Source of the DNA: Macrostomum lignano
Taxonomy: Eukaryota
Reading direction: 5' to 3'
Length of the DNA: 64,000 nucleotides
Assembly: GCA_002269645.1 (NCBI GenBank)
Contig: NIVC01000896.1
Span: forward strand, 279,487 to 343,486
Below, piece after piece: positions 10,993 to 60,770 of the stretch. Made by a program: the position numbers and the translations under genes. The notes below the pieces were generated by a model that did no database searches, was not told the DNA's origin, and saw only the letters and a program-made list of their open reading frames with translations. How positions within the stretch are numbered: the stretch's first letter is position 1; the number at the start of each line of letters is the position of its first letter.

Positions 10993-13900
10993 ATGAGCGA
11001 GGTTACCGATGCAAGAAATTCCATTAAACCGTCAAGTAAGTTTTCTTTTGAATGATGATTGATGAATGTAGTTCAAAATCCCATAGAAGAGTTTTTACTT
11101 TGTTACAATTTTGTATGACTGCATTTTTCTTGAGTTGATGAGTTTTGTAGTAGTTAATCATGATTATGAAGTAGTAGTAGTAAACTAGTCGAATTACAGA
11201 GGGAGCTGTCGAAAGTATTGTCGAGAAACTGCGAGCTATATTCAATATATTTATCTATTAGAGCCAGCACAAAGCCAAGAGAGACAAGCGACAAACCAGT
11301 CCAATAGCTTAGGGGGAAATTCAAAACGTTTTTAATCCTTTGAAACTTTAATTTTAAGATTTAAACAAAACAATGAAACTTAATCTGATTAACAGGTCAA
11401 CCAGTGCGTGCAGATATACAACTAATTAGTAGATGAATTATTAGTACCAATAATTACTCTTTTTAAAAACGATGTACAAGAACTCAAACCGTCACAACCT
11501 GTCGAATATTTACTTCTAAAATTAGGCCCAGGGGATAAAAGGTTAACACTACCGCAATGTTGTTTTTAATATTGCTTTCAGATCTTCCTGAAAGTAGTTC
11601 TGCCTATGACTTCAAATTTGAAGATGGACTATGTAAGTTTTACAGTCAAGTTTTGCTAAAACTTTTCTTCCCAAACGAACAAATATAAGCGATGTACAGC
11701 TTTTACACTGCGGAGACTGTGGCATTTTCAATTAGAATCCTGTATTTCTGCTTTGCTCAGAGCAGCGACCCTTATTACTCAAGTGTGAAAGTGAGCTCTG
11801 CTTGTTCAACACAAGGAAATATAACTTAACTAAGCTACAATAGCAATGAAAACATGCTGGTCTCTTGAATAGCCAACTATGAAAAACCCTATGCCAAATA
11901 ATGATATTTAAGGTTACCGAAGATTGGCACTGTTCTTCGACGCTGGCGGTGAGTCTGTGACAGATGAGTACGCCGACTTTCTGAAAGAGTGCAGTTTTAA
12001 CGTAAAGAGGAGCCTGGAACAGCAGTATGAAAGCAAACTGGACTCGTGTCTACCCGACTCCGTGAACAATTCCGAGGTCCAGCAGCTAATTGTAGTCGTG
12101 ATAGCTGGCAATGCTTTCATGAATGACGTCTTAGATTTCATGACAACGGATAAATTTCCCAACTGCCAAAACAGATGTTTATTATTTTGTCGCGCTGGTG
12201 AAGAAAGCCCGGATGACATGAAACTTGCGAGGGAATTTTCGAATGCGAATTTTAAATACAAGTGTACAACTATCGCTTACATCGTTGCTAAGGAACTTGA
12301 AAGCATACAGCGCTTCTATAAAAACTTTCTGGATGACTGCAAGTGCAAGTGGGAAACTACAAGTATATTTTCTATCCTGGAGACGCCATCAATCGCTTAC
12401 GAGTCCCTGTCTTTGTATCATAAGAAAGGAAATATTGGTGGTGATTTCCTGCGCGACATTTTCAAATTTATCAGGGAACCCAAGAGCAACCTTGATGAAG
12501 TTGATGCCTTACTAGCAGCATCACAGCAGACTGTTCAAGACAAACCGACTGATTGGATGCGCAAGAATGCCTCAATAATCTATCCTAATCGGCGCAATCC
12601 GAAAAAGCCTCGAGCGTTGGTCATCGTCAACTATGATTTAGAAGACTCCCTATACTTGGCTCTGCAAGTGGACTGCATCGGAGTTATGCGTATGCTAAAA
12701 AATCTTGGCTACATTGTAACAAACACGCAAACCCGCTCCAATGATGCCTTGGAAATAAGAATCAAGCTTTTTTCAGGAGATACTGAACACGGTGACTCCT
12801 GCATCCTTGTCGTGCTGTCCCAGACGCAGCAGCAGCTGAGCAGCATCACTGTCATGAATCTGTACAAAAGCTTGGCTATTGGCAAAAAGCTCGCGGCCAA
12901 GCCCCGACTCTTTATTCTGCACGAGTGGGATGTCCCAACACTGCAGACAGACTTTGTTACTGATGGTTTCAGCAGCGATACTTATGAGATCGTTAAAGAT
13001 GCTGTGGACGGTTTGCAGGCCTATTTTCGCAAGCATGATTCAACCATCAAAGTTCATCCACACAGCGGCATGGTGTTCGGTCGATCAGTTAGTAGCGATG
13101 TGACAAGAGCAGAGGGCAGCGCTTTTATTCAGACACTGTGCGAAACTTTCAGCCAGTATGGGCGCACAGAGGACGTGGCCTCCATGATTACCATAATTAA
13201 TGAGCACCAACGACTAGATGAATCTGTGCCAATGTGGTTTATTCAGACTGGCAAGCTCTTTTATCTCACGGGAACAGACGGAATCCAGGGTAAGAGCACT
13301 TTTTTAGCTCAATTCATGTATACTTTTCAATTCGAACTTAGCAAAAGTGACTTCAGTTTCGGCAACACGATAAATTATGACTGTCACTGTAACTGTCAAA
13401 GTGACTTAAAACTATTTGTGATCAATGTTATTGTAGGTCTGCAGCTCATCGTGTGCTTGCGCTACTGCCGACATTTTTTCGGTGATAGTGTGCAAAATTG
13501 TTGGTGCAAATTTTGGCCTCATGGTTCCTCCTCGTCGCCTTAAAAACAACGCGATCTTGAATGACAAGTCTGTGAATGACCGCGTTGGCCGTGGATCCCT
13601 TTATGCCGAGGTCCTTTGCTAGTCGTCTTCAGTCTCTCCCTGTTGTTTTCGAAATTAATCACTTTTTCCAAAGTCGAAATTGAAAATTTATAACTATGCA
13701 GAATTCATTATTGCATAATCATTTGCACTATTTTGCTTTTAGCTACCGGTCAGGAAGTTTCACAACAAAGTCTAGAGAAGAAATCTGAAGAACATAAATA
13801 CACTAGAATTGGTGAGTAGCATTATAAAATATCGAGACAGACATCTCAGAGATCTCATTCATTTATCTCAGCCATATGAAGCTATTGGCAAAATCTTTGC

Positions 13901-15626
13901 AATGACTACCTCTTCTCATTTCTGGTTGTATCTGTTCCGTTTTGCTGCCTTTAAATTGTTGCGATGTCCAAACATATTTTTATCCTATCAAGAATTATTT
14001 GATCTAAAAACCTTCTGATAAGTACATGTAGTTTAGAGAGATACGCTTGAGTTATAAACATTATTAGATTCATGAATTAAAGAACACCTGTGCCTGTATG
14101 AGCCAATAAAACTCGCTAATCTCAGCAAAGCTCAGCCGTACTTGCACTTTTTAATTTCAGATCGAACAGGATTTGCGATGATTCTCACCGAAGGACAGTT
14201 TGATGGGGCCAGCAACTATCAGATGTTTCTGGAGTATGCAGCCTTCAAAGTGCTCTTCGATTACACGGATGGCAATTCGAGCTCAATCAAGACAGCCATC
14301 AGGCTTCCAAAAGAAACTGAAGGAAATGTTGTCCTTTATCTAATTGTACGCACACATCGCAACGACAACGTCTTGCAAGAAATAGTCGATGAACTTTCTA
14401 AACAGCAATCGTCTCAAAAGTGCAGCAGTAGCATTTTGCTTATCTTCTGCGAAGTGTACGAGTCTGAAGAGAATTTCGCGAACACTCAGATGCCCAAGGA
14501 GCTACCCGAGAAGTTTAGCCTTGTCAGAGTTGGCGGGAGTCGGTGCGGCGTGACAGAGTTTCTGGACTCCCTGCTGGAATCTCCCACGGAGAACATCTCT
14601 CTCAATGGCAGCCTTGTGGTTGGTAGAGATTTTCATTCCACTTCAGTCATCGGTGAGCTAAACGGCATAATGCACTGCAAAGTCAATGACGAAAATCCAG
14701 GCTGGAGGAAGAGAATCACTTGGCTTGAAAACTTTTGTAAACAAGAGAGTTTAAAAAATCCGACTTCAACTGACGTTAGTGACGACACGCAGACAAGACC
14801 AGCAATAAGAGGTTCTCTCCGATTAGAGAGTTTTAGAAGTGAATGGAATGCACCTGGATTAGACACTCAAGAGTGCAAGGCTGTAGCACTCATCGTTCAC
14901 AACGTTGTCTTCCAGAAAAAGGAACTATCTACTCGGTTCGGAAGTCAACACGACTGCCAGCGAATGGCTGACACTTTGCTCAGGCTTGGCTACTCAGTGA
15001 GCATCAGGTCGAATCTCACCAAAGTAGAAATCGAAAGCGAATTAGACATGTTTTGCAGTGACGCACGACACGGCAGCTCAGTCGTAGTGGCTTCCATGTC
15101 TCACGGATGTCTCGGTGAAGTAGTTGGTTTCGACGGCGAATCAGCAAAGGAAAGTAAAATTCTAAAGAGAATTTCCAAAGGAAAAAACACCAGTGGAAAG
15201 CAGCAATTGGTCATCTTTCAGAACTGTCGAGACCCTGGTCGATTGCCTAAATCAGAGCTGTCGTTCTTTCCTGGCATGATCGTCGCTCACTCGACTTCGC
15301 CGGATGAAAGCAGCTACCGAATGACAGACAGAGGCAGTCGGTTCATCCAGTGTCTGTGCACTGTTCTCGACCTGTTCGCCGACAAGTGCGACATTGCATC
15401 AATGGTTCCTATCGTTAATTATGTGGTGCAAAACGCCACTTTTCATCTGGGCATCAGCCAGCTGCCCTGGTGGTCTGTACAGACAAGCAAGAAATTTTGG
15501 ATTCGAGTCAATGAGCCTCCTCAAAGCAGTCTTGAATCGCACCATCGAACCGATTCTGATAGGAAGCAAACAACAAATGACTGCAGGGCTCAGGTGACGG
15601 AACTTCTTCAAAAAATGCGGTTGTAA
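10993..15626 (+). CDS. Multi-caspase-domain protein 1 (~1001 aa): degenerate fold, pseudocaspase, degenerate fold, active caspase
   Basis: Predicted exons 10993-11035, 11582-11632, 11913-13289, 13743-13811 and 14161-15626 are all joined by phase-1 GT-AG introns and give an open frame. The last domain has SMSHG and FQNCR; the second has VLSQT and ILHEW instead. The two 5' exons are less certain. Confidence 0.75.
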
Positions 15627-15949
15627 TAATCTACGCAGAGGAAGTTCATCAATTTGAATATTTGTGGCGACTGAATAGATTTAATTGCTTATATTGTAGC
15701 TACCAGTGACTACTCTAATCCTTACTTTTTTTCTTAGCGGTTCAAGGTCTTTTAAGTTTCTATGAGAGTGGTAAATATGATTTTAATAGTCAATCTACGA
15801 GCGCAATATTCAGACCATTCAAAAAATTTACTATTGACAACTATTAGGACAATGATAGATAGCATGTTTATAGGCGTTTGTAAATTTGTTTTACTTTTTA
15901 GCAAAAAATTAAATTAATAAATTGCAAGTTAGCTTCTTAGTTAAAGGCA

Positions 15950-16285
15950 GGAGGCTGTTTACCCTGGTGCACTTTAAATAACATTGTCACACAGCCCGGC
16001 GAGAGGCATTACTGCCCATTCCGCCAACTCCCCTGAGCAGGCACACAAGCGCGCGGATATGTATACAGTCATCCGCAAAGGCACACACTCACACATGGGT
16101 GTACAATGGCTTGGATTTAATAATTTATATCGCTTAGGCATGTACACTTCACTGTGTCTTGAGGTTGGCCCTTGAGGCCGTTACTTGCACGAGAGCAGAC
16201 CCAAGCTGCTGACTGCACTTGGAATCGAGTATGGGCCGCTGGCACATCAGAACGCCGCGTTAGGGCACAAGGCTACGGCCCCTAT
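15950..16285 (-). mobile_element. Putative tRNA-derived SINE
   Basis: The minus strand begins GGGCCGTAGCCTTGTGCC (A-box-like), followed by ACTCGATTCC (B-box-like), and ends in a GGGTAAACAGCC-type tail. No target-site duplication confirmed. Confidence 0.4.
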
Positions 16286-17352
16286 AATAAATTACTACGT
16301 AGTATAATAAAATATTTAATATAAAAGAAGCGTGTTTCCATAAGTGCTTCGATGGAACAAATTTGTTTTTATTGTTTTAATGAAAGACGTTAGACTGACC
16401 ATTCTAAACAGTTTAGCTAGGCTAAGTTAAAATAGCAGCAGAATTGCTCTCGCTAAAACTAACCGATGCCGAACTTTTGACTGAGAAAACTGTTAGCCAG
16501 GTGTATCTTTTCATTATTAAAACTAATTATAAATGATTTAAAAAGTTTTTTTTCCAAATTTTATCTTCCACTATTCTAGATATTCGTAAATTTCGCTTTA
16601 AGCTTCTCAAAAAATGAATTCAAACATCCTAAATTGATGACCATATGGTGTGGAATCGTCAGACATGAAAAAAATTATTAAAGAAAGCATAAAGCATTAG
16701 AGTATGAGTACATGTTTGAGTTGTATTTTATGAAATCGATCTTTTTGAATGTATCTAAATCACAAACTGCGACTGGCCCTCGATCGTAGTGCATCACTGA
16801 GTTATATTTTTCTCTAACTCTGATTCAGTTATTTATAGTAAACATAAAACTAACAGGCTCGTAAATTGCTGCTTCCTAATTCAATTGTTTATTCAAATAT
16901 GAACGATTATCTAATCAAGTACAACAACTCAGTTCAAATAAATCAAAGGAAACTAAGAGTTTTCTGCTTGCCATCGAATTTCTGCTTTTGTGTTATTTTG
17001 ACAAACGTTTAGTATAACTTAGCTAGTTAATATATAGGTGTATCTACAAGTTTATAGGAGTACGACCGTATATAGTAGTATATATAGGAGTATATTAAGC
17101 CATTTTTCTCTAATCGATTGCAAGCAGGCAAGATATACACGGTTACTAGCTTAGCTAGTATATATATACGCTATATATACGCTAAATATATTATCCTATA
17201 TAGAATTGGTTTTAGATTACAATGCAGCTTTATTGTATATATATTAACTTTTCATTCAAAACTTCAAAATTCACCTTTTCTGATTACAGAGACAAAGTGC
17301 TACATAACTAAACCTTATCTGGTATTCGAAGAAACGATCGAACTCAGTATCG

Positions 17353-20300
17353 ATGGCTGATTTTTCTGACATATTTGAGACCGAAAGCCCAGCTACTAGT
17401 GAGTGCGAACCTAAAATAAAAAAATTAGCAAATAAATTAGAAACAAACATAGGCTGATTCATGACGTAGCGTGTTCGAGATGTAGTTAGCGATTAATTAA
17501 TTATTAGTTATTTACTAATTAGTTAGCTAGTTTAATTATTAGTAGTGTTGACACGCAGGGTACGAGACAAAACGCCGAGTTGAGGAGAGTACAAAAACGA
17601 GCGCGAGGCAACAATTTAAATTGGCGGGGAAATCCGATTCATTTAAACCCAAGATGTCTATCAAAAAAGTAATAATAACTTGGACTTAATTAAATAAAAC
17701 TTAAAGTACATTTTTTAATAAATAAATTACATTAAATTATTAGCTGGGGAACCTGCCAATTAATCAACTACAATAATTTTAAGTAATAAAAACTCAGATA
17801 GAAACTAACAATTTAAGATGCTAACAACGTCGTCACAGATTGATTCCTCTCAGTAATTTTTCCCACATTTAAATTTTCAGTATTGAACGAAATTTCAACA
17901 GCTGCAGGTCTATTAGTTGTTGTTTAAAACCATTTCTTTATATCTTAAATACTTTAATAAGCCGTATATGCTTCAAAATTGCAGAATCAACCGAAACACG
18001 CCGTGCAACTCGCAGTGAATTTGGTAAGATTGATTTGGGGCTTGTGCATCAAAATTGGCCGAGAATGGGTTTTTTGTGCGATTCACACCCCTGATGACCA
18101 CTACTCGAGGTGCAGAGAGTGTACAGGTTTGACGATTAGAAACTCTAGGGCTGCTGTTCAGTATTGGCGCGCTTGCGTGTGCTCAGGAGGCAGAAAATTT
18201 TTTTAGGGCCTTGGGCAGGGGGTGACATGAATATCCTACTAAATATTATAAGAAACATACAATTATTTACGAAGATTTTTTTTAGAATAATTTTTGTTTT
18301 AAATTGCAAAAAAAACTTACAGGCACCATTCAAGATGTACAGGCAGGATCGAAGCTTCCCAGCTGGCAGGGAACATTCGGTGAGCACTTCTCAAGGACAC
18401 ATTAAGTAGACTTTTTTAATTGTCCTTTGCACTTCAACTATACAAATAGCTTTGTAAAACTTTTACAATTGCAGCTCATCAAAGGCTACTGCTAGTATTC
18501 GCTGATGAGACTACAGCAAAGATGGAAAACTACATTGAATTTATGAGCACTCGTTGCGGCTTTTACACTGCGAAGCTCGCCCTGAACAGTCACCTTGCCG
18601 AATCCGAGACCCTGTCTCGAGCACCAGTCAGGCAGATTGTCTGCCTAGTAATTTTCTCCGCTTCGCAGCCACAGCGCTACATGAAGGACTACCTAGATTT
18701 TCTAAACCAATTTGACGAATCCGTGGATCAGCTACTGCTGTACTGCAACTTGTCCGAGACAGAGACCCAAATCGATCAGGATCTGCGAAATCAATTCTGC
18801 AGCAGTGCTTTTCCTTATCGAAAGTCTAGCATTGCTTACACTTTCGGAACTTCCTATGGAGTCGGACGATTTTTTGATAAATTTAAGAACGATTGCAACT
18901 TGAAATGGAATCGTACTGTTGGCCTTTGTGACGTCCTGGAATCACTTGATATGGACCAGTCGTCTGAACTTTACATTAAAAAGCCTAGAAGCGAAAAGTG
19001 CTTCTTCCCACGCGAAATATTTTACCCTTGCAGCTCACAAGAACTGATCAAAATAGCCGGCATTGAGTCCTTCACCAACCGAGTTGACCCGGATACTCTG
19101 GCGTTATACGGTGATTTTATATATCTGAACAGCCGCATACAAAAGCCGCAGGCCTTGATCGTTCTAAACATCAAACTAGAGAGCGGCAAGACAAACAAGT
19201 CAATGCACGCAGACTGGAGGCGCCTTCTTTGGCTGCTTGATAAGCTCCAGTTCGAGGTCAAAGACGTTCAAACAGACGCGTCAAGCTGCAGTCAGCTTGA
19301 AGAATGCGTGAAGACTTTTGCTGATTCTGAGTTGCACGGTGACTCTTGCTGTCTGGTTGTGCTCTCCGAAGGCTGGCTAGCAAACAGCTGCATTGGCAAC
19401 ATCAGTAAGAGCATGGCCTTCGGAAAGCTTATCAAGGGTAAGCCGAGGCTGATCATCATTCAGGAGTACCAACCGAAGTCCTCAGAAGCATCGGATGCTG
19501 CGCCGAAGTCGCTCCCCCAATTCCTGCCTGACGCAGTGGAAGCGATGCGATTGCAGTTCAGAAACGACAAGCCTGAGGTCAGAGTCCATCCGCTAAGCGG
19601 AACCGTCTGGTGTCAGTCCGAAGCGTCGGACACCGAAAGCGACAATGCGACACCGCTGATTGGATCCATCTGCGAGACTTTCATCAATCACTCAGCCATC
19701 GAGGATTTGGTTTCGATGATTTCAATCATCAACGAGAGACTGCAGGACGCCCCACCCACTTGGTGTGTGCAGACTGCCAAACTTTTCTATGTTGGAAATA
19801 CTGAGTTCACAGGGAGCGGAAGCGCTAGTAAGTTTATTTATGTCTTTAAAAATGAAGGAGATTGTTTATTTCAAGTTTACTGTCAATATTAATCTTCAAT
19901 TTCAGGCAAGGCTCAATCCGAAAATACCCCTGAAAATCCTGCACCTGCAACCGATCCGTTAGCGAATTTGCAGACAATGCAAGGCTTAGCAGCAGAGTCG
20001 GACAGGCTGCGTCCCATTCTCGATCAAAACAGTAAGTATGAACTAAAAATTTGAGACAAAAATCGATTTGGAGGTCCCAAAATTTTTGAAGCTATAAACT
20101 TAATGAATTTCAGATCGCCCTGGAGTAGCACTGATTCTCACTGAAGGCTTGTTCGACAAAGTCCGAGATTATCAAATGTTTCTGGATTTTGCCGGCTTTC
20201 AAGTAATCTCGGAACGAATCGACGGTATTGGCGCTTCTTTGAGAGAAATTGTGACTTCATCGGTTGCTCAAAGCCCGCTAGCAGTTGTGCTGATCGTTAA

Positions 20301-21546
20301 GAAGCACCAGGTCGGAGCCGGCGTAGATGATGTAATTGCGTGCATGTCGGAGACTGCAACCAAGCACGGAAACAGTTCCCTACTCATCTACTTTGAGATA
20401 CTAGATACTGGTGAGCCGCCTTCTGAGATTCGCTTACCGAATGAACTGCCAGAGAAGTTCAGCACAGTTTGCTACCAGGGCACTCGAGACCGAATCGATC
20501 TCTGCCTTGACTTATTTCTAAAAACGCCGAGAAAGAAACCTAAAAACTGTCCAATTGTTGGTTATAACTTTGAGAAGCTACGTTACAGGAAAAAAGAGCC
20601 AAAAATGATGTACCGATCCAGCGATGGAAATCCTGGCTGGAAGCTGGCGCTCAAATGGCCAGAGGGCCGAAATATCAGGGGTGACGACATCATGAAACAG
20701 GACTTATTCCGCACAGCCAGTATGCGAAAGAAATGGTTCCCAAAGAAACCTATTCTACAGAATGTCACTATGCAGAGCAGGGCTCTAATCGTTCAGAATG
20801 TTGTCTTCAAATCCAGTGAGATCAGATTTGGCACTCAGAACGACTGTCAGAGGCTGACGGACTGCCTTACAGGCTTGGGGTTTCGAGTGTCAATCAGAAC
20901 GAACCTCACGGCGGTTGAAATCTTGCAAACTGTGCAGCTCTTTGCTGGTGCCAACGACCACGGCCGCTCCTGCGTCTTGGCAATCATGTCCCACGGATAT
21001 CTGGGAAAAATTTTGGGATGCGACGAAAGGACTGTGAAAGAAGCAGATATTCTTGATCAGCTGAGCAAAGGCAGTGGGCTTCAGGGTAGATCAAAGTTTG
21101 TTGTGTTTCAAGCGTGCAGGCCATTGGAAGAACCACATTCCAGCAGCTCAGCAGAGCGATTGATTAGACCCTATCCCGACATGGTGATTGCTCACTGCAC
21201 CTCCCCAGAGGAGTTCGGTTATCGAAATCACTTCGAAGGCAGCTGGTTCGTGCAGAGCCTGTGCTCCGTGCTGAATGAATGCGGAGCCGATGCGGACATC
21301 CTATCAGTGATAACTGTGGTGAACTACATGGTTCTGACCTGCTTCAATCGGTCCGACTGTAAAGATGAGCGGACTCAGCAGCCGTGGTGGCTGCTGCAAA
21401 CGAGAGGCGCTTTTGTGCTTGGCAGCGGCACACCAATGGAAGAAATGGGCGACACCAATCTTATTTCAGCTGCAGACGCTGGGAGCCGAAAGTGTCGTGC
21501 AACAAGCATTTGGAAAAATTTGAAGGCCTTTTTTGCGAGGTCGTGA
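17353..21546 (+). CDS. Multi-caspase-domain protein 2 (~985 aa), paralog of protein 1
   Basis: Predicted exons 17353-17398, 18475-19827, 19906-20031 and 20114-21546 are all joined by phase-1 introns. The final domain has AIMSHG and FQACR; the second domain has VLSEG and IQEYQ. Confidence 0.78.
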
Positions 21547-49505: not shown

Positions 49506-49830
49506 AGTAGTATAGAAAAAGACGCTTCTAGACCCAGAGCACTTTTTTAATGACCGTTTTAAGGGTCTAGAGGGGGGACACGGGGGGTAAATAAAAAAAC
49601 ACATCTAAACACCCTTAACACATCTAATCACCCATAATCACCCCTAACAATAAAAATCACTTCCCAACACTTCCAAACACTCCCCAACACCCCCCTCGCG
49701 TCCCCCCTCTTAAGACCTTACAAACGGTCATTAAAATAAGGTCTGATCTAGAAGCGTCTTTTTCTATACTACTACTCTATAACCCCTTGCCCGCGCCGCA
49801 GGCGCGAAGGGTCTTTTTCTGTTACTAAAA

Positions 49831-50145
49831 ATGACCCGAGTTTACACCTTTTCTGTTAGTGATACTTTTGAGACTGTTGCTAAAAATGCAGAGATAATAA
49901 AACAACATATTTTGAATGGAATAATTGATGAAGTTTATTTAAAATATGACGACAAGCACGACCTAAAACTTTATCCATTAGAGCTAGATGAGATGTATGA
50001 TTTAGAACAAGAGGGTGAGTTAATATTTCAACTTGGAGATTATTTAAATTCGGATGATTGGGAGGTTAGATCAACAGATTCCGAATCAACAAATAGTTCA
50101 TATGAAACCAGTGATTCAGAGAATGAAAGTGAAATTTTTATGTGA
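49831..50145 (+). CDS. Small acidic viral hypothetical protein
   Basis: 104-aa ORF with an AAAATG start and a D/E/S-rich tail. Confidence 0.55.
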   Translation: MTRVYTFSVSDTFETVAKNAEIIKQHILNGIIDEVYLKYDDKHDLKLYPLELDEMYDLEQEGELIFQLGDYLNSDDWEVRSTDSESTNSSYETSDSENESEIFM

Positions 50146-50161
50146 AAAAAATATTTAAAAA

Positions 50162-50386
50162 ATGAACTATTATTCTATAACAGAAACGACATTTATTGTG
50201 AAAAATATATATAAAAAAATGAAGGTAAACTATTCCTACATCGGAAATGTGCCGATTAATGAACTTAATGAAAATTTAAGTTTGATAACAGTTGAACAAA
50301 TGTCAATAATAATATTAGTAACAATTATAGTAATAATATTGTTTTTGTTTGTTATAAAAAATTTACTACCATGTTGTCTTAAGTAA
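50162..50386 (+). CDS. Small viral membrane protein
   Basis: 74 aa with a single hydrophobic segment (IIILVTIIVIILFLFVI) and an AAAATG start. Confidence 0.55.
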   Translation: MNYYSITETTFIVKNIYKKMKVNYSYIGNVPINELNENLSLITVEQMSIIILVTIIVIILFLFVIKNLLPCCLK

Positions 50387-50396
50387 CTGTTTGAAC

Positions 50397-52007
50397 TTAG
50401 TTCGCAGACATTATCTGGTTCTCATAAAAAGAACCCAATATTTCTTCACCATCCTTATCAGCAATTATATAGGTTGTAGGGTTTGTATTTAAAACTTTAC
50501 TGATGGTAAATTTCTCACTTATTTTCCAATATCCTTTTCTTCCCTTTTCAAACTTATCTTTCCATTTATAGATATAAACAGAATCACCAACCTTAAAACC
50601 TATAGTTTTCTTTTTTTCAAAATCTCCAAAAGTAACCCTAACGTTTTCAGGATTGTTATAAGCTTGTTGAGGAGTCATCTTTATCGCCGAATGATATGAA
50701 TTATTATAATCTTTCACTACGTCTGGTAATATTTTTACCCATTTTTGGTTACCATTAAGACTAAACTGAAACCACAATTTCTTACCTAAAGTTCTATTAA
50801 ATCTTTCTATTAATGCGTTTTTACTCTCTCCATAAATAGAATAAATTTTATTAATATACTCCCCATTCGCGTCCTTTTTCCTTTCTTGTCCTTTTTCAAA
50901 ATGATATAATTTATACATATGAGGATTGTAAAATTCTTTTCCTTCGTCAACACACAACCTTTCACTTTTTTCTCCAAGACTTCTAAAAGCAGCAGCAACA
51001 TCCTCTCCCTTTTTGGATTTTAAAGGAACAGCCCACGCGTATCGAGTAAAACCATCTAATATGGTTAAGATATATTTATATCCTCTTTCGTTCGGCATCG
51101 ACATTAAATCAGCATACCAAATTTCATTCTTTTTGAAGTTCATGATTTTTCTATAAAATTTAGGTTTTCGATATTCTTTATGAAGAATCTTTGCCTCATC
51201 AGAACTTAACCCGCCGCCACTTAACAACAAACACTCAACACAATTATTTCCATGTTGATTATAATTAATTCCTAAACCAAATTTAACTTTAGACTGCAAG
51301 ATCTTTTTAACCATCCACCTAGTTAATTTTTGACCTACCGATAATCCCTGCAAGTTATCTAATCCTTGAATCATTTTTTGATCGGCTTCATGTTTTAATC
51401 TTAATGCTTCCTCGGGTGTGTTCTTATCAGCATCTCTGTATGCTAAGTCATGATAGTATGCTAACCAATCAATTCCATTTATGGGAATTGAATCGGCTTT
51501 TGGGGTGTCATCAGGATTTAATCTCAAATCTAAGCGAGTGCCGGGTAGTTTACCCTCAATCTTTCGAAAGAGGCTGGAGCACACCTTAAGCGGCGATAAT
51601 TACCGCCCATCTCCGTCTGCTCTCTGAACCTTCTCCTTATATTTAAAATACTTAGGAGCTTGGCTGCGCATTGCCACCGTGTCTTCAAGCTTTTTACCTT
51701 TGGGAAGAGGAGTTACCTCTGTTCCTTCAAAAGATTTCTCAATTGAAGTGGTACTTGAAGCAGTATGACGGGTTTCACGCAATTTGGAGATGTCGCCACA
51801 AATAGTGACTAGCAAGGACATTGCCTTCCTCACTCAGGCCACGGGTTAACCTGTGAAGTTCATTGATGGTAGGTGTAGTTCCCCTGTATATTTACCAGTA
51901 GTAAAGATTGGTGGTAAGCTTGTTAATCCTTTTTGAACATCTAACAATCCTCCTTCAAACACTATTTGATCGTTCCGAAGGAACGCGAACTTCGTTCGGT
52001 TGCTCAT
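50397..52007 (-). CDS. PLA2-like domain fused to a retroviral-type integrase (~435 aa), split by a group I intron
   Basis: Exon 1 (52007-51849) ends GELHLPSMNFTG. Exon 2 (51545-50397) starts PGTRLDLRL and contains IDWLAYYHDLAY (PLA2 HD) and the integrase D-D-E motifs WYADL, LCVDEGKEF and LIERFNRTL. Confidence 0.85.
51546..51848 (-). ncRNA. Group I intron ribozyme, subgroup IC1, 303 nt, no ORF
   Basis: Core motifs P AAAUUGCGUGAAA, Q CAAUGCGCAGCCAAG, R GUUCAGAGAGCAGA and S CUUAAGGUGUGCUCC occur in order. Helices: P1 with U-G at the splice site, P3 CAUCUCC/GGAGAUG, P7 GAGCA/UGCUC, P8, P9 with a GAAA loop, and P5abc. Confidence 0.9.
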
Positions 52008-52557
52008 TTTTAATAGCCATAAAAATACATGATAGCACCAATTGTTTTGCAAACTCTTCAATGGTTGGTTGTTGAACTTTTTTATAGCGATTATCTACGC
52101 TAGTTAAGTATCTTTTATTTCTCCAATTTTCAGACTTTTTAATCTGATCATCGTCTTTGTAACTAAATGAAGAAGCAGGAATGAAATGATCAATATCTAA
52201 CTTTCCAGTATAATTTTTTGGAACATAATAATTTCTTGTGAAATTTAACCAATCAAAAAAGAATTCTTTTGTGCAACCAAGATATGAGATATAGTCCTTG
52301 TCATTAAAATTTTTCAACGCCCAATTTATTCTATTTCTAATTAAAACAATATGTTTGTAATTATCATCAGTGTGATACTTATTTTTTCTATATTCATTCC
52401 ATTTATCTTTATTGTTTTTTATCCAAATAGCAGATGAGGTATTATGACAAGATCGACAATCATTTCTAAATTTTTTTGAATCATTTCTCCAAAAATAAAA
52501 TTCTTTCGTCATCGGTTTTTCTTGTTTACACTTAGTACAAATCTTATTAGTTTCCAT
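51955..52557 (-). CDS. HNH-family endonuclease with an N-terminal CxxC/CxxC zinc module
   Basis: CTKC..CRSC, then YLGCTKEFF..LDIDHFIPASSF..ENWRN..SVDN, a pattern typical of phage and giant-virus HNH nucleases. Confidence 0.7.
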   Translation of the reverse strand: METNKICTKCKQEKPMTKEFYFWRNDSKKFRNDCRSCHNTSSAIWIKNNKDKWNEYRKNKYHTDDNYKHIVLIRNRINWALKNFNDKDYISYLGCTKEFFFDWLNFTRNYYVPKNYTGKLDIDHFIPASSFSYKDDDQIKKSENWRNKRYLTSVDNRYKKVQQPTIEEFAKQLVLSCIFMAIKNEQPNEVRVPSERSNSV

Positions 52558-52582
52558 TTTATAAAAAATAAATTTAACAATT

Positions 52583-53251
52583 AAACTCCAGTATGTCCAG
52601 CAGCTTTCGCAGCAGCTAAAACAAGTTTTCGCGGTGTTTTAAATCCATCACCAACAGCTGGTTTGTTATTTATAGAATTAACAATCCATTTATACAAGCT
52701 GGTATTTTTAACAGCTCCTCCTAACTCATCATAAAAAATTCTAGCACTTATTAATTCATCCCTAGTATATAAATCGGGTTAAATTTTACCCTAGGGTTCG
52801 TAATAATATTAAATGCTCCGCCCAATTCTCTATATAGTTCATTTCGATCTTTAACAACGTTACCAATTCGATAATTACCACCACCTAAATCTGTCACAGC
52901 AATACTAGTTGGTGCAGGTCTCGGATATTGATCAACTCCACCCCTAATCTCTTCACGTCTAATTTCTGCAACTCTAAATATTGCTTGATCAGTCTCATAA
53001 GCAGGCGGCTCATCCAAAATTTCATCCTCTTTTGGCTCCGTATTTTTAGCAATTTTTTCCAGAAGATCTTTATCTGTTTTTTCTAGTTCACTAATTTTCC
53101 CAGTAATAGGATTAACAAAAGGAGCAGCAAATCTTTCACCCGCTAATTGTATTCCTAACTTTCTTTTTTGTAAATTTCTAACAAAATCAGAATATCTTTG
53201 CTTCTCTTTATAAATCGCTAACTCTCCATCAACGTCCATAAATTGACTCAT
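52583..53251 (-). CDS. Polinton hypothetical protein (one frameshift)
   Basis: 166-aa ORF with an AAAATG start. A 1-nt shift near 52775 extends it to a stop at ~52583. Confidence 0.5.
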
Positions 53252-53285
53252 TTTTTAACATAAAAAACTTTTTTAACTTAAAAAA

Positions 53286-54758
53286 ATGGCTGAAACAAAA
53301 ACTATGTGGAGTGATAAATTTCATTTCAAAAAGCACCGACAGTATATTAATGAGGTCAGAGCAAGAGATTTAAATTATACCCTACCAACAAGTGATAATT
53401 CAAATAACTTTACTACTGGAACGGTAACTTTTGACATCGGCGCAACCAACACTATATTGGATATGAAAAATGCGTTTTTCCGCGTTAGATGGTTGTATAC
53501 TAGAAATGATGGAACTGCTCTTGCAGCCGGAGATATCGCAGATCGATCCGGAATAATAATAGAAAATGATTGGTTTTATAAATGTTTTTCCCAAGCTCAA
53601 CTAACTGTTAATGGTGCTGAGGTTGAGACATCATCAAACCCCGCAGAGATTAATGGAGTTTTGAAACATTTAAATTATACTTATTTATCAAAACAAGTTG
53701 GTGATAATGTTGGGTGGATGCCGGATAAAGGTAACGGTCAAGCAGTAGTTTTCCCTAATGTACAAAACGCAGCCGGTGCAGATACTGCAGCGCTAATTGT
53801 TTACCTTAATACAAACATAGTTCCAGTTGTAACCACTATGACTAATACAAAAGATATTAATACTGGTTTTATAGATCGTCAGAATAAATTCCCAGTCGCG
53901 GTTTTAACCACAGCAACAGCATATGAGCAGGACTTTTCAATCTTTCCACTATTTGGGTTCTTCTCACCAAATCGGGTATGGAAAGGATTAAAATTTGGGA
54001 TACAGTTGCAAATATCTGGTGGATATCAGCCTAGGATACTTTATGGAACCTCAATTTCAACCGATATAGCAGTTCGTATAGATTCAATTCAATTAGTCGT
54101 ACCAACTATTGAGGTAACAGCCCCACTTTTAAAACACATCGATAATCAGTTAACGCATGATCAGGAAATATTTTATTTGAATCGTCGACATTTTATGCGA
54201 ACCATTAATAACAATCAGGATTCATTCCAGTGGCAAATACTGACATCAAAACGTCGGGTGAGATATATTTTTGTTTGGTTTAAGATAACAAATAGAAGGA
54301 GTAAAAGAGCAAATGGGGATTTATATTGGCTTCAATCCGGTGCCATAGCAGCACAAGCAGCCACCGCAACAGACAATGCGGCTGCAGCTATTAACGAGTT
54401 TAATGTTCAGAATATCCGCCTGCAGGTTGATGATCAATATTATCCGGTTAAAGATCCTCTTAATCTAAATATTGCAAATAATAATGTTAATGATTTTATA
54501 AAATATTATCAAGATTATGCCAAAAATGAAGCGTATGCCGTCCCTCAGTACACACCCACAGAGTTTCTAAACATCCATCCAGTGGTTGTTTATGATCTAA
54601 CGGCACAGAAAGAAAACGTAGCCAATATTGGACTTAATTATATGTTAGAGATTAATAAAACCGGTAATCAGGCACTTGACGCCCACGTATTGTTTCTAGA
54701 GGAATATATGTCAATTGCTAAAGCTGATGGCACGATTGTTAGGGACGCGCCGCTGTAA
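53286..54758 (+). CDS. Major capsid protein (double jelly-roll, Polinton type)
   Basis: 490 aa, beta-rich, with the motif TVTFDI..LDMKNAFFRV..CFSQAQLTVNGAEVE. It lies next to the ATPase and penton genes. Confidence 0.8.
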   Translation: MAETKTMWSDKFHFKKHRQYINEVRARDLNYTLPTSDNSNNFTTGTVTFDIGATNTILDMKNAFFRVRWLYTRNDGTALAAGDIADRSGIIIENDWFYKCFSQAQLTVNGAEVETSSNPAEINGVLKHLNYTYLSKQVGDNVGWMPDKGNGQAVVFPNVQNAAGADTAALIVYLNTNIVPVVTTMTNTKDINTGFIDRQNKFPVAVLTTATAYEQDFSIFPLFGFFSPNRVWKGLKFGIQLQISGGYQPRILYGTSISTDIAVRIDSIQLVVPTIEVTAPLLKHIDNQLTHDQEIFYLNRRHFMRTINNNQDSFQWQILTSKRRVRYIFVWFKITNRRSKRANGDLYWLQSGAIAAQAATATDNAAAAINEFNVQNIRLQVDDQYYPVKDPLNLNIANNNVNDFIKYYQDYAKNEAYAVPQYTPTEFLNIHPVVVYDLTAQKENVANIGLNYMLEINKTGNQALDAHVLFLEEYMSIAKADGTIVRDAPL

Positions 54759-54807
54759 GCGGCGCAGGTCTCCGACCGTCGCCCCTATTTAAATTATTTC
54801 TTTAAAA

Positions 54808-55558
54808 ATGGTAAAGGCAAAACACGATAAGATATTTCCAAATGATCCTTTTCTTTGTTTAGTAATTGGTGGGTCGGGTAAAGGAAAAACACACTTTGTT
54901 TATGACCTGTTAACAACAGATGGAATGTTAGACTATAATAATTTAATAATTTATACTAATAAACCTAGAATAAAATATTATGAATTTCTTAAACATGGAT
55001 TAAAAAACAAATTAAAAAAAGATGTCTTGTTTAGAATGTTAAGAGCATATGAGCAATATGAGGATGATGACGAACCGCGATTTAATCTAGCAGACATTGA
55101 GGATTTATGTAAAACAATGGCACAACAGCCAGAAAACATCACCGATCGCCCCGAAGGGTCGCGGACTTCGTCCGATCGCGCCCAACTGTTAGAGTATCAA
55201 CCCGATTAGCCTATGATCAAATTCCAAAACATGATAAAACACTAATTATTTTTGATGATTGTATTAATGACGGTGATCAAGAATTGCAAAAGGAAATTTT
55301 TGTTAGTGGTAGAGGAGATGGAATTGGAGCTTTTTATCTAACACAGTCTTTAGAGAATTAGAATCGATTATAAAAAAGAATGCAAGTTGTTGTGTAATGT
55401 TTGATTTAGATAATTATGATTTACAAAATATTCACGCGAGATTTAATCCCGGATTGGATGCAAAACCATTTAAAAGTATGTGTAAAAAAATTTGGGATGA
55501 TAGCCAATACAAACATATTTATATCAATCCGAGGTTAGAAAGGAAAATCGAATCTTAA
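54808..55558 (+). CDS. A32/FtsK-like packaging ATPase (two frameshifts)
   Basis: Walker A GGSGKGKT. In the shifted frame come Walker B LIIFDD and VSGR..FYLTQS. Shifts near 55170 and 55348. Confidence 0.85.
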
Positions 55559-55610
55559 CAAATTTGATAAAAGAAGATAATGAGGAAGAAGAATAATTCC
55601 CACTATAAAA

Positions 55611-56396
55611 ATGACTACAAATTTAAATACTATAAAACAATTGGTAGATCGAACTAATTCAAAATTTAGTACAACATTACAGTTTATAATGACAACCAGC
55701 GAGCAACGGATTCAATTGCGCGATCCATTACAACTTGATCAAAGCCTAAGTTATCAAATAGGTTTAATACTATTTTCGGTTTTCAACATGCCTCAATTAA
55801 TTAATGCAACAAATAATCAATTTAGATATTCTAAAGATTCCGGAGCCAATTGGACAACATTTAGCGTTAACCCAGGAGCGTATAGCTATACTGATTTGAA
55901 TGCTTATATAGAAGGAGAATTAACAACTAATGGTGATTGGGTAGCAGGAGCAATTGTTATAGGTGTTGATTTACCGTCTGGCAGATTCACACTATCACTA
56001 GGATCCGGATATCAGGTTGATTTCACAATTGCAAATTCACTCAGAACCATACTTGGATTTAATTCCCGAATAGTTACCACATCAAGCACCGGTGATACAG
56101 TTGGAAATATAGAGGGTGGAGTAAATACAATTAATATAACAACCGACATATCAAACGGTGGTTATATAACAGACGATAACGGAGTTTTGGTTCAACGTGG
56201 AATTATTTATTCAATCCCATTTCTTGCTGTTCCAATTGGAGAGAAAATGATTGTATCACCTCAAACCCCAATATATTACCCATTAAATCAATATAATGTT
56301 CAATCAATTTATATTAGGATTGTAGATGAAAGCGATAGATTAATAAGTTTTGGTGGGCAGTCAATAACAGTGATTTTACGTATAAAACAGGTTTAG
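55611..56396 (+). CDS. Minor capsid (penton) protein
   Basis: 261 aa with NSLRTILGF, SPQTPIYYPL and IRIVDESDRLISFGGQSITVILRIK, typical of the Polinton single jelly-roll mCP. Confidence 0.85.
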   Translation: MTTNLNTIKQLVDRTNSKFSTTLQFIMTTSEQRIQLRDPLQLDQSLSYQIGLILFSVFNMPQLINATNNQFRYSKDSGANWTTFSVNPGAYSYTDLNAYIEGELTTNGDWVAGAIVIGVDLPSGRFTLSLGSGYQVDFTIANSLRTILGFNSRIVTTSSTGDTVGNIEGGVNTINITTDISNGGYITDDNGVLVQRGIIYSIPFLAVPIGEKMIVSPQTPIYYPLNQYNVQSIYIRIVDESDRLISFGGQSITVILRIKQV

Positions 56397-56406
56397 TACT
56401 GTAAAA

Positions 56407-56616
56407 ATGGGTAATCGAACAACATGTTCGCGTGCAAAGCACGATAATAATAATAATTTAATAAAAAAACAATCAGAAAAAGTTAAAAAAGCTGAAGATA
56501 ATTACGAACTAGAACTAGCAAAATTAAGGCAGTTACAAGCTGATAAAATAAGAAAGGAATTGTTAAAACCCACACCTACGAAACTAACTAAAACCAAGAG
56601 TTTTTCAGGAACATAA
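56407..56616 (+). CDS. Small basic viral protein starting MGNRTT
   Basis: 69-aa ORF with an AAAATG start, tightly packed between the penton and protease genes. Confidence 0.55.
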   Translation: MGNRTTCSRAKHDNNNNLIKKQSEKVKKAEDNYELELAKLRQLQADKIRKELLKPTPTKLTKTKSFSGT

Positions 56617-56617
56617 A

Positions 56618-57058
56618 ATGACCATGACGTGGGATGATTTTAAACAAAGATATGGAACAGACACAACAAGCAATATCGAATTAACAAATTGGGCGAGGCA
56701 GTTAAAAATAAAACCATTCAGATGTGTTATGCGAGATGAGATCAAAGACTTACCACAATATGGATGTTTCATTGTTAATATTGAAACAACAAAAGAAAAT
56801 GGTGTTCATTGGTCAGCAGTTTATTCAAAACCAAAACTTGTTTATTTTTTTGATTCATACGCGCTTCCTCCGTTACAGGAAATAAAAGACAAATTTAATC
56901 ATACTAAAAATCGTTTATGTGGAGATCATCACGAACAATTTCAAACCTTTGATAAAAGTTATTGCGGGCAAGCGGCGTTGTATTTTTTATATCGACTTTC
57001 GAATGAAGCTCGTGTAAACCCCGAAGTATTTAAGACTATTTTAGACTCTATAAAATAG
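56618..57058 (+). CDS. Adenain-like cysteine protease
   Basis: Catalytic H-D-Q-C set in GVHWSAV, FFDSY and QFQ..SYCG. Confidence 0.9.
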   Translation: MTMTWDDFKQRYGTDTTSNIELTNWARQLKIKPFRCVMRDEIKDLPQYGCFIVNIETTKENGVHWSAVYSKPKLVYFFDSYALPPLQEIKDKFNHTKNRLCGDHHEQFQTFDKSYCGQAALYFLYRLSNEARVNPEVFKTILDSIK

Positions 57059-57068
57059 ACAGTAAAAA

Positions 57069-59120
57069 ATGTTATTTTCTGGAACACCCTCATGGAACGG
57101 AACAACAAGTAGTGGTGGTGGTGGCACATCTGGTGGAATAAGTGTTACATTTGGAGATAATCGATATATTAATGAGGATGAAGGTTATAAAAAAACTGAA
57201 ATTGATAATAAATTAAATTTAAAAAGAAATGTTGCAGATTCCTATACCAAAACTCAAATAGATGATTCACTAAATCTGAAACGGAACGTAGCCGATTCCT
57301 ATACCAAAACCGAAGTTGATAATTCATTAAATTTAAAACGCAATACAGCCGATTCCTATACCAAAACAGAGGTTGATAATTCATTAAATTTAAAACGCAA
57401 TACAGCCGATTCTTATACCAAAACCGAAGTTGATAATTCATTAAATTTGAAACGGAACGTAGCCGATTCTTATACCAAAACCGAAGTTGATAATGGATTA
57501 AATTTAAAAAGAGATGTAACTGATTCTTATTCTCGAACTGATTCTGATTCACGTTATGTTCAAACCACCGCAACCGGAAACCTAGATATGAGCAACAACC
57601 GAATTATAAATGTTTCAATTACAACTAGTGATTCAGTGGTTGATAAGAACTATGTCGATAATCAAGTTGCCACTCGTAGTGGTAATATTAATATGAATAA
57701 TTTTAAATTAACAAATTTATTATTTGGAACAGAGAACGCAGACTCGATAACTCTAGGCCAAGTAAACGAGCGAGCTAATGCAACCGACGCCGATATTTTT
57801 ACCACGCCGCTTACATCAAATACTTCAAATCCTGATGTTGTTCTTACAGCATCTGAAAATGGCAACACAGCTTTTCGAGTTGGAGATGGAAGCCTTGCGA
57901 CACAATGGTCACCAAATACCGGAACCACAACCAATATGGAAATTCAATTTGAATTTTTAGGTTATAATAGAAGAATATTTGAATTAAGAATTACAGGCAG
58001 TGAAACAATTGAGATACCCTCGGGGTGGTCGGTTCGCGCAAAAAATGTTGCTACCGATTCATGGACGACATTAACTACGTCGGGATCACCAGTTCAAGCA
58101 ACATCATTTGCTCTATCTAATTTAACGACTAATTTTTGGAAATATTATAGCGTATTCTTCCCAACTGGTGGTACCGGTACACAACCTATCGAGGTTCGTC
58201 AAATACAATTATTTGAACACCGTGTTGAAATTCAAGATCTTAATTGGCCAACTCAAATACTTTCTGCAGTTCCGCGAGCGTACGTAGATCAGCTAGCTAC
58301 TCCAACATCAAATGGTAGAATGTCTGGAAGCGATAAAAATAAATTGGATGGAATACCTGCTATTGATGCGGCCTTGTTCGAACCAGTAATTTGCAATTGG
58401 TCTGGATATCAAAATCCAACAACCGCCGGAGATATATATCCAGTCGGTTCTTTAATTGGTGACGCTTCTTATATCGATTATCAAAATGGAGCTAGAATTA
58501 CTCGTGAAACCGCAGTGTAAGTGGGCTTTACAATTAATTTCACACATTTTCAAAATATATCTGCGTCTTTCTTTTTCCGAGTTGCTAATGCTACAGGAGA
58601 TGGTGCAGATGCGGTTTGGTTTTATGCATACTGTCACCAACGTCCAACATCGGAATTTGGACTGGATTATCAACCGACGCCGGATTGATAGTTTTTGCAA
58701 GTGAGTGGCATGATAGGTTTGGAGTTGTTTGGAGTAATAAAAAATCAGACGGATCTACGGTTCGTAACGATGTTAGTAGTGATGCGGATCAAACTGTAGC
58801 CTATGCTAATATTGATAACGGCGATTGGCATTTTTTGAATTAATATTTTAAATCAAAGGGTTTGGTACCGATTACAGTCATACAATGTTGCTGGTGATTC
58901 TTTTACCCTCATTGGACAGAACGTTTTCACATATGATAGTGGAACTTGGGGAACTTTAGATAAATCTGGAACCCTTATGGGTTTTGGTGCTCGAACTGGT
59001 GGAGCGGATGCTGCACATTTTATTCGTGGTGCGTTGTATGTGGTAGTACGTCGTTTGGTTATGTTTTTCCCTCTACTGCTTATTTGGAAAAACCTCCTAC
59101 TCAAATATAAAATATTTATA
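57069..59120 (+). CDS. Fibre/spike-like protein with 19-aa repeats, a discoidin-like domain and a frameshifted LamG-like C-terminal part
   Basis: Six units of LNLKRNxADSYTKTEVDNS, then GNLDMSNNRIINV and GDGSLATQWS..PSGWSV. Broken frames beyond 58520 include DNGDWHF. The region after 58520 may be a separate gene. Confidence 0.6.
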
Positions 59121-59122
59121 TA

Positions 59123-60428
59123 CGAGGGACACTCCAAAAGTTTTGCAATTCAACCACTTGCGCAAGTCGCACAATCTTCAAAATCAACCCTCTGTACAAT
59201 AAACATGTACATAGTCCCCACCTCAATTTTTTAGTAATTTCATACATATATGCCTGCTCAGCCCCCAGTCAAAGTCAGTGACTCCTTAACCTGTACTGCT
59301 GCGGCCATGGAATTTGAATCGTGAGCAGAATCGGCTACTAATTTGGTACTGCCACAAGCGAAAGCTCACGGCGCTTGAGACTCATGCCGAGCTACTAGCA
59401 ACATTGGAGGCTCAAGCACCGTCATATGCTACGGTTACACGCTGGTACCGCGAGTTCCAGGCCGGCAGGACCAGCTTTTCTGACGACCCCCGGCCCGGGA
59501 GACCTCCGACAGCAGCGACGGAGGAAAACATCGCTGCAGTGCAGGAGCTGATCCATCAGGATCCGCGAATCACCACGGACACGTTAGCTATGAATGTTGG
59601 CATCGGATCGGCAGCGGTCGATACGATTCTACACGATCACCTCAGAGTCAGGAAGCTTTGTGCCCGATGGATACCCCACATCCTGACAGATGCTCAGAAA
59701 CAGGCCCGCATGGAGTTCTGTCAGTTTCTCATCGATCGATATGAGCACGGGAGCCATCAGCGCCGCTCTGAAGTCATCACTGGTGATGAGACGTTTCTCT
59801 ATCATTTTGACGTCGAGACAAAGCGCAGCAGTGCAGAGTGGGTGCCGGAAGGTGGGCAACGACCCCTGAAAGCAAGGCGGTCCCGGTCCCAGGGCAAGCG
59901 ATGTTTGCCATCTTCTTCGACTCACAAGGCGTGGTGGCGATGGCGAAGCTGGAGGGTCAAGCTACAGTCACTGCTCGATGGTAACTGAAGAGTGCTTGCC
60001 TGTCGTGATCGACAGCGTGACCCAGAGGGCACCAAGGACGGAATGCGAGGGCGGAAGCTTCACCATGACAACGCCCCCGCCCACACACGGCTGCTGCAAC
60101 TCGAGCGTTCCTGGACCAAGAGGGCATTGCAACGTACCACACCGCCCTACTCACCAGACCTCGCCCCCTGCGACTTCTGGCTCTTTCCAGAAATCAAAAA
60201 GTCGCTTAGGGGTGCAGGTTTCAGTCCGACGAGGAGCTGGAGCAGGCGGCGAAGGAGGCGACTGACGGCATCCCAATTGAAGAGTTCCAGGGCCTCATGA
60301 ACAAGTGGCTCGGAAGAGCGCACAAGTGTTTGCAGTTCCGCGGGAGCCTACTTTGAAGGATTGTAATAGAAAAGTTTAGCAGAATTAACTTTAAATAGTC
60401 GAATTGCAAAACTTTTGGAGTATCCCTC
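59123..60428 (+). mobile_element. Mariner (DD34D) transposon with a frameshifted transposase, inserted in the Polinton
   Basis: TIRs GAGGGACACTCCAAAAGTTTTGCAATTC / GAATTGCAAAACTTTTGGAGTATCCCTC with TA flanks. Motifs WIPHILT, ITGDET, HHDNAPAH and YSPDLAPCDFWLF. Confidence 0.9.
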
Positions 60429-60443
60429 TAAAATTTGTATAAA

Positions 60444-60770
60444 ATGGCTTTTAGTAGAACTCCATCGATGCGGCAAAATAATGTTATTATTCCTATTCCT
60501 AAACAAGAATCAAATATAAAAACATTCAAATCTCATACCAAATTTTTATTTAGTACTGTAAATGTTCAGGATAATAAGAAGCTTCAAGAATTAATTAAGT
60601 TATTAAAAAATCATATTATACTTCAAGAGTTTTGGAAAATAGGATTTAAATGGGAGAAAAAAGAAAGAATCACTCCAATACAATACCTATTGAGCTCCGG
60701 GCAAATACCCAAAGAGCGCGGGGAATTCATTTTGGTGCTATTAAAAATAGACGAGAATGTCGGTATCTGA
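60444..60770 (+). CDS. Viral hypothetical protein
   Basis: 109 aa from an AAAATG start. Confidence 0.5.
   Translation: MAFSRTPSMRQNNVIIPIPKQESNIKTFKSHTKFLFSTVNVQDNKKLQELIKLLKNHIILQEFWKIGFKWEKKERITPIQYLLSSGQIPKERGEFILVLLKIDENVGI

Follow-up and report, generated by a model that had tools for sequence, protein, structure and literature searches.

An optional group I intron interrupts a predicted PLA2-integrase fusion gene in a Polinton-type element of Macrostomum lignano

The window analysed here, a 64,000-nt stretch of contig NIVC01000896.1 from Macrostomum lignano, contains a Polinton-type element whose PLA2-integrase gene is interrupted by a group I intron. The account that we regard as probable, by a modest measure, is that a natural fusion of PLA2 and integrase is split by an optional, selfish group I intron, that the spread of this intron was aided by a nuclease of the GGNCC type, and that splicing levies a fixed toll on the gene rather than serving as a regulated switch. 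The main interest of the locus is the intron, with its nuclease, its target and a majority form ending in A, in animal chromosomal DNA.

The element spans 49506 to the end of the window, where the contig also ends, and its right end lies beyond it. Apart from the PLA2-integrase gene, its features were as follows:

49506..49773: left terminus of the element, containing an internal inverted repeat (27 nt, perfect); also found in the intron-less copy L100
51955..52557, minus strand: upstream ORF of 200 aa, endonuclease VII/HNH-like (phrog_1035, E 7e-8), overlapping exon 1 by 53 nt
53286..58520, plus strand: Polinton morphogenesis block, with capsid-sized ORFs and an A32-like ATPase fragment
56618-57058, plus strand: cysteine-protease-like ORF with H/D/Q/C motifs
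~59123-60437: GC-richer mariner-like insertion, absent from L100, holding all 7 GGNCC words to the right of 49400

Among the Polinton/adintovirus markers, the integrase is clear and the ATPase fragment weak (PF04665, E 0.0054, below the cut-off), and the PolB, capsid and protease labels are assumed by us from motifs and position only. The ORF at 56618-57058, which we take from its H/D/Q/C motifs to be a cysteine protease, had no match in the libraries and none among solved structures. AAA directly precedes the ATG at 12 of the 15 listed gene starts (49831-60444), versus 35 of the 437 ATGs in the element. Three different nucleases occupy the position preceding the PLA2-integrase gene, depending on the element: the endonuclease VII/HNH-like ORF in the window, an Eco47II-like ORF in loci L051-L068, and an ORF in L108 (2223-2564) that is presumably GIY-YIG-like, judging by motif. 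At the left end of the element, the terminus recurs in inverted orientation 214 nt further in, as a perfect match of 27 nt. The left flank is host DNA, containing an RT, a Tc1-type transposase and, at 11912-21546, four long single-frame ORFs with caspase domains (PF00656) arranged in tandem.

The interrupted gene lies on the minus strand and is laid out as listed here:

51849..52007, minus strand: exon 1, 53 codons, the last of which encodes a Gly of the PLA2 Ca-binding loop
51546..51848, minus strand: group I intron, 303 nt, without an ORF, IC-like by inspection (P5abc present), last base A
51576..51624, minus strand: the two P7 strands (51624-51618 and 51581-51576), with the guanosine-binding G-C pair kept
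51270..51545, minus strand: PLA2 part of exon 2, with the remainder of the loop and the HD motif at 51452
51374, minus strand: in-frame ATG inside the PLA2 part of exon 2, directly preceded by AAA
51290-51270, minus strand: K-x-K-F-G-x-G motif closing the PLA2 part of exon 2; stand-alone PLA2 proteins end with it
51190..51269, minus strand: linker, variable in length among homologues, with a second Gly-rich motif at 51224
50397..51189, minus strand: rve integrase part of exon 2 (D 51110, D 50948, E 50807), with the stop codon at 50399-50397

Joined at these borders, the exons give a frame of 53 + 382 codons, or 435 aa, which agrees with the first-pass annotation, where a spliced ORF of ~435 aa had been proposed to link the 53-aa exon 1 with the PLA2 HD motif and the DDE integrase; the HD motif and the D/D/E integrase motifs share one open frame on exon 2. 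The first 15-36 residues of exon 1 differ in length between copies. The motifs of a parvovirus-type PLA2, namely the Ca-binding G-x-G loop, HDxxY and a downstream D, are spread over both exons, and in a homologue alignment of 70 rows the key residues are nearly invariant (G in 69, and D, Y and D in 70 each). PF08398 matched the intron-cut domain with E 0.0078 and the intact homologue P0002 with E 7e-8; intact PLA2 homologues exceed the cut-off of this profile. The integrase contains the D-D-E triad and matches PF00665 at the cut-off (E 9.8e-8), and the model of a homologue resembles the foamy virus intasome (E 1e-15). Once the intron is removed, a single gene is predicted to encode both a parvovirus-type PLA2 and an rve integrase. 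The full-length protein requires exact removal of the intron, and the proposal that only splicing restores an intact Ca-binding loop was upheld.

Both intron borders were set exactly by three intron-less sister copies (L021-L023). One of these natural copies, L021, is 94.8% identical to the window over exon 2 and beyond; because its alignment breaks at 51850 and resumes at 51545, the insertion comprises 51848-51546, or 303 nt. The match to RF00028 (Rfam) covers 51858-51555 with 62.1 bits (E 2.5e-15; gathering score 50), and an Rfam scan of the whole window at the gathering score missed the intron. P1-P9 and P9.0 were all found, P9.0 adjoining the terminal A. When the structure drawn on the window copy was applied to 26 related, aligned copies representing three intron types, 96.9% of cells were paired and both partners had changed in 22 of 66 pairs (no more than 5 in slid controls), including all four P2 pairs and four of the six in P7; because the 26 rows are related, this covariation shows the structure and not present activity. 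Three P7 pairs are changed on both sides between the window and its sister intron. The G-binding G-C pair in P7 is present in 25 of the 26 rows, and the U-G pair at the 5' splice site in P1 in all 26 and, by inspection, in L108. On this pairing pattern, 51848-51546 is a genuine group I intron of the predicted self-splicing type. Two other routes of removal were considered and rejected. The intron starts with TA and ends with TA, unlike a spliceosomal intron, and by inspection a nearby GT used with the nearest AG gives a stop. A 3' site at G 51555, where the Rfam match ends, would keep the frame but add three residues to the loop; it also falls in the P9 stem and conflicts with the intron-less copies. 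Contigs from four runs presumed to be RNA covered the intron and showed no 51545/51849 joint; since the runs could instead be DNA and rare forms are lost from contigs, this result speaks neither for nor against splicing.

When the PLA2 portion of a homologue lacking the intron was used to search the genome (764 Mb), it recovered L021-L023, which belong to the same family as the window copy and have open PLA2-integrase frames of 431-432 aa; 17 loci of a second family are intron-less as well. In total, four intron versions occupy the one site: the 303-nt form, a form of ~880 nt with an ORF, a third type of ~320 nt, and a 302-nt form in L108. An RF00028 scan of the genome scored 28 candidates, all above the cut-off and all before the same PLA2 position in the second family, where the introns with a placed exon 1 (n = 27) are 836-895 nt long, end in G and mostly bear an ORF. 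The ~320-nt type (L051-L054, L063 and L064) has the same 5' site and the same P1, P2 and P5abc as the window intron, with a different core that RF00028 missed, and its 3' junction restores the usual loop by no simple reading. L108, an unrelated viral contig from IMG/VR that is 36% identical in protein, has a group I intron inserted at that same site, with G as its last base (RF00028, 52 bits). No ORF is present in the 303-nt window intron, and the ~880-nt sister version contains an endonuclease-like ORF. The intron is likely an optional, mobile passenger with gain and loss of its nuclease. One family-2 locus (L035:721-1596) contains an intron-started exon 1 and, ~600 nt further on, another copy of the gene start that lacks the intron.

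The codon that follows exon 1 is TAA, as the first-pass annotation had noted in proposing that splicing efficiency could act as a switch on integration. Unspliced RNA would stop at codon 54, ten other ATGs precede the next in-frame start able to reach the integrase, and the terminal A, the only intron feature that could throttle output, might lower it; moreover, intron retention is proposed as a form of regulation for the coral intron ND5-717 in the available text of PMC6545197. Nevertheless, a selected switch on integration, with PLA2 and integrase acting as one coupled polypeptide, is very improbable in our judgement. Both the intron and the fusion are optional, the fused gene occurs without the intron in this genome and in most homologues, and, apart from the ribozyme, the search for regulatory RNA elements found none. 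Additionally, an early in-frame stop appears to be generic to these introns: of 39 family copies, 29 have TAA and one has TAG as the first intron codon, the remaining 9 having their first stop at codon 5-6, and the first stop falls at codon 5 in all 27 family-2 introns, at codon 9 in all six of the third type and at codon 4 in L108, so that none of the three other versions begins with TAA. By itself, the idea of a switch on integration adds little.

The last base of the window intron, at 51546, a feature that the first-pass annotation does not mention, is A rather than G, as in 28 of 39 family copies, a sample biased to window-like copies; the other 11 end in G. A terminal G is near universal in group I introns and required for the second splicing step, according to the available text of PMC6545197, and in the window the G-binding pair is unchanged. 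These points, together with the existence of G-ending and intron-less copies and the AAA upstream of the internal ATG at 51374, a context shared with most genes of the element, would fit an A-ending intron that no longer splices, with PLA2 supplied in trans and integrase made from ATG 51374 or from other copies. We consider this distinctly unlikely, given that the 28 A-ending copies have varied exons, that the P9.0 pairing beside the terminal A is kept, and that coral ND5-717 also ends in A yet splices in vivo at reduced efficiency, with >70% of precursors unspliced (PMC6545197, same portion). It is further opposed by the low pN/pS of A-only variants, which was 0.14 in exon 1 (7 synonymous, 3 nonsynonymous), 0.18 in the PLA2 codons that precede the internal ATG (7 synonymous, 5 nonsynonymous) and 0.17 in the integrase; codons readable only after splicing thus held 14 synonymous and 8 nonsynonymous variants. 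The exons of A-ending copies look to be under purifying selection, which would lend indirect support to splicing. These counts are small and the copies are mosaic, A- and G-ending copies sharing haplotype blocks, and the signal is weakened because the selected variants may stem from unsampled G-ending or intron-less copies.

The fusion itself is widespread among relatives. PF08398 and PF00665 were found in one protein in 82 of 120 homologues, most of them without the intron, and by pattern matching the tail of the loop, HD and the two later integrase motifs were kept in 57 of 120, in both cases among the matches listed (1159 in all). The 20 closest loci, window included, comprised 12 with fully open exon-2 frames and 8 broken at scattered places; a stop common to sister copies between PLA2 and integrase, which would have spoken against a fused protein, was not present. 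By contrast, the 22 viral loci with this integrase included only one in-frame fusion, two with a tandem out-of-frame PLA2, seven with PLA2 elsewhere and 12 with none within 3-kb flanks. Hence the fusion is real, old and independent of the intron, yet not universal.

The position of the joint points to two genes brought together. The motif K-x-K-(L/F)-G-x-G is nearly invariant (its positions kept in 70, 68, 70 and 64 of 70 rows), and 70 of the 81 short PLA2 homologues that carry it end at most 15 residues past it; these 81 derive from 120 short homologues, the other 39 lacking the strict pattern, and some may be fragments or frameshifted fusions. Four stand-alone integrases begin a few residues before the first integrase helix. 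Since the joint coincides with the natural C-terminus of stand-alone PLA2, the fusion reads as a PLA2X gene tethered to an integrase gene. The distance from the motif to the first catalytic Asp ranges from 26 to 91 residues (47 rows measured), and the model of the intron-less P0122 (pTM 0.58) consists of two confident parts, with pLDDT <50 at residues 119-137; the linker is variable among homologues and, in this model, of low confidence and unstructured. The P0122 model matches foamy virus integrase, and the fold matches listed for the fusion are all integrases; the best match of the PLA2 module among solved structures was a parvovirus capsid, at E 2.3.

We take the Gly-rich motif at 51224 to fit the adenovirus protease consensus, which K-x-K-F-G-x-G presumably fits only in its G-x-G part. 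The fused protein is probably a precursor that is cut apart after packaging. Under our preferred account, the PLA2X module would carry the integrase into the particle, the cysteine protease of the element would cut at the Gly-x-Gly motifs, and membrane escape and integration would then be performed by separate pieces. The functional coupling of both activities in one polypeptide, as first suggested, is doubtful in view of the single in-frame fusion among the viral loci, the location of the joint and the nature of the linker. Many short PLA2 homologues (P0160-P0279; L117:3290-3460; L119:3240-3420) terminate in a run of A-rich Lys codons directly behind the G-x-G motif, and some have tails that resemble the integrase start in another frame, which might reflect programmed frameshifting or homopolymer decay; in L117 and L119, the two out-of-frame tandem cases, no clear slippery site with a strong stem was found, and L119 has its own ATG.

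The ORF in the ~880-nt sister intron matches Pfam RE_Eco47II (E 4.6e-7, above the cut-off), its start is likewise preceded by AAA, and its best fold match is EcoO109I (Z 9.8, rmsd 4.2, 163 residues aligned; next row 6.7), an enzyme whose site is RGGNCCY. Eco47II-type systems recognise GGNCC, according to the available portion of PMC12376442. The intron ORF has 17 homologues, and in 11 of them the frame continues into the same ribozyme-core reading. In 9 of the 20 loci L051-L070 the nuclease is also free-standing, directly ahead of exon 1, and many intron copies, including the window copy in its visible part, have none of this nuclease nearby. In the PLA2 loop, the intron lies between the two codons of a Gly-Pro pair, and such a pair always spells GGNCC; intron-less alleles carry GGNCC at the site, and the intron-bearing junction does not. 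GGNCC is thus inferred to be the target of the intron, where cutting is predicted. A distant Eco47II-like ORF adjoins an ORF that we label C5-methyltransferase-like from motifs on a metagenome contig (L099:2881-4425); this contig, whose gene content gives a giant-virus-like impression, may be where the intron nuclease came from. The idea of collaborative homing driven by the HNH-like ORF upstream was considered too, and is weakened by the presence of that ORF in the intron-less L021-L023.

GGNCC is scarce throughout the element, with 0 occurrences in 12.9 kb versus 14.2 expected from dinucleotides, the 7 occurrences to the right of 49400 being those in the 1.3-kb transposon insert. The intron-less L100 has a single GGNCC in 9.7 kb, at the insertion site; L106 has 2, and L107, L103 and L108 have 0 each (L103 versus 13 CCNGG), all of these elements being relatives and not independent. 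The depletion is modest by a stricter measure: counts as low as that observed arose in 19 of 1000 shuffles with protein and codon use fixed, CTNAG was as low as GGNCC (22 of 1000) among 16 patterns compared, and CCNGG is low in the window too (4 versus 14.2). Gly-Pro pairs are absent from the element versus 5.4 expected.

Under our preferred account, the Eco47II-like nuclease would cut at or around the GGNCC that is obligatory in the Gly-Pro pair of the PLA2 loop. The site is absent from intron-bearing copies, and either the intron would be copied in by repair or such copies would simply survive. The window copy, with its ORF-less intron and no such nuclease in the visible part, would need the nuclease in trans, and its A-ending intron would splice nonetheless, probably less efficiently. 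In favour of this account are the coexisting intron-less and intron-bearing alleles, and the nuclease ORFs that lie within the sister intron and next to some of the family copies. Against it, intron-less copies persist and are themselves poor in GGNCC, and an enzyme that cuts at five bases would be expected to damage a nuclear genome, which calls for a longer site or a different compartment.

The loss of GGNCC and Gly-Pro across the whole element exceeds what homing alone needs. This, the free-standing nuclease genes beside the fusion gene and the restriction-modification-like pair in L099 suggest a different role, in which the element would turn the nuclease on competitor or helper DNA and would retain the intron for removing the only GGNCC that cannot be recoded, as self-protection without methylation. 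Such a role is possible and somewhat unlikely: intron-less copies retain the site, many intron copies have no such nuclease nearby, the depletion is modest under the codon-preserving null, and most of the predictions are in common with homing. The extended version, a methylation-free restriction system of an animal Polinton in which a GGNCC cutter has purged its word, an A-ending intron hides the copy in the PLA2 loop and slow splicing caps precursor supply, is a conjecture that we regard as unlikely. We continue to favour an optional intron spread with the aid of its nuclease.

Natural A-ending, G-ending, ORF-bearing and intron-less alleles within one genome constitute a ready test series that bears on ribozyme splicing from animal mRNA, the dispensability of the terminal G, and the passage from restriction enzyme to homing enzyme; the widespread PLA2-integrase fusion suggests how Polintons might load integrase into particles. 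Literature searches found no description of a PLA2-integrase fusion and no group I intron in animal Polintons, although supplements of PMC8502044 (gene maps, Fig. S2) and PMC12220804 (Tables S11-12) could show either.

Several known systems resemble parts of this one. Parvovirus-type PLA2 with a pX-like C-terminal end, in an element that also encodes an rve integrase, an ATPase and a protease, is known from adintovirus PLA2X (PMC8502044) and Spodoptera Maverick CAP/INT (PMC5803895); in the available parts of both sources, PLA2 and integrase are separate genes and no fusion or intron is mentioned. Restriction-enzyme folds inside group I introns are known from the PD-(D/E)xK homing endonucleases I-Ssp6803I and I-Bth0305I, which differ in belonging to other families and to bacterial or phage hosts, and in the accessible text Eco47II appears only as a type II restriction enzyme (PMC3424549). 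The hexacoral ND5-717 intron likewise ends in A and not G, but is mitochondrial, obligatory and giant, and it splices, whereas the intron described here is nuclear-integrated, optional, polymorphic for A/G and known from sequence (PMC6545197, in part).

Further parallels are the RF00028 introns of protist Polinton-like viruses from Rhodomonas lacustris, Paulinella micropora and Desmodesmus armatus, where group I introns of ~300-380 nt also interrupt a protein gene carried by an integrated element of Polinton type; in the available portion of that source the hosts are protists only, the host ORF is unannotated and no nuclease is named, whereas here the host is an animal, the site is a PLA2 catalytic loop, and an Eco47II-like ORF and a terminal A are present (PMC12220804). 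As in nuclear group I introns generally, the ribozyme intron lies in chromosomal DNA; according to the available text of one review, such introns occur only in rRNA genes of microbial eukaryotes (PMC3679873), and animal group I introns are mostly mitochondrial, from placozoans, corals and sponges, in the accessible part of a 2025 database (PMC11835236). A group I intron in a protein gene, present in many chromosomal copies of an animal genome, departs from both descriptions.
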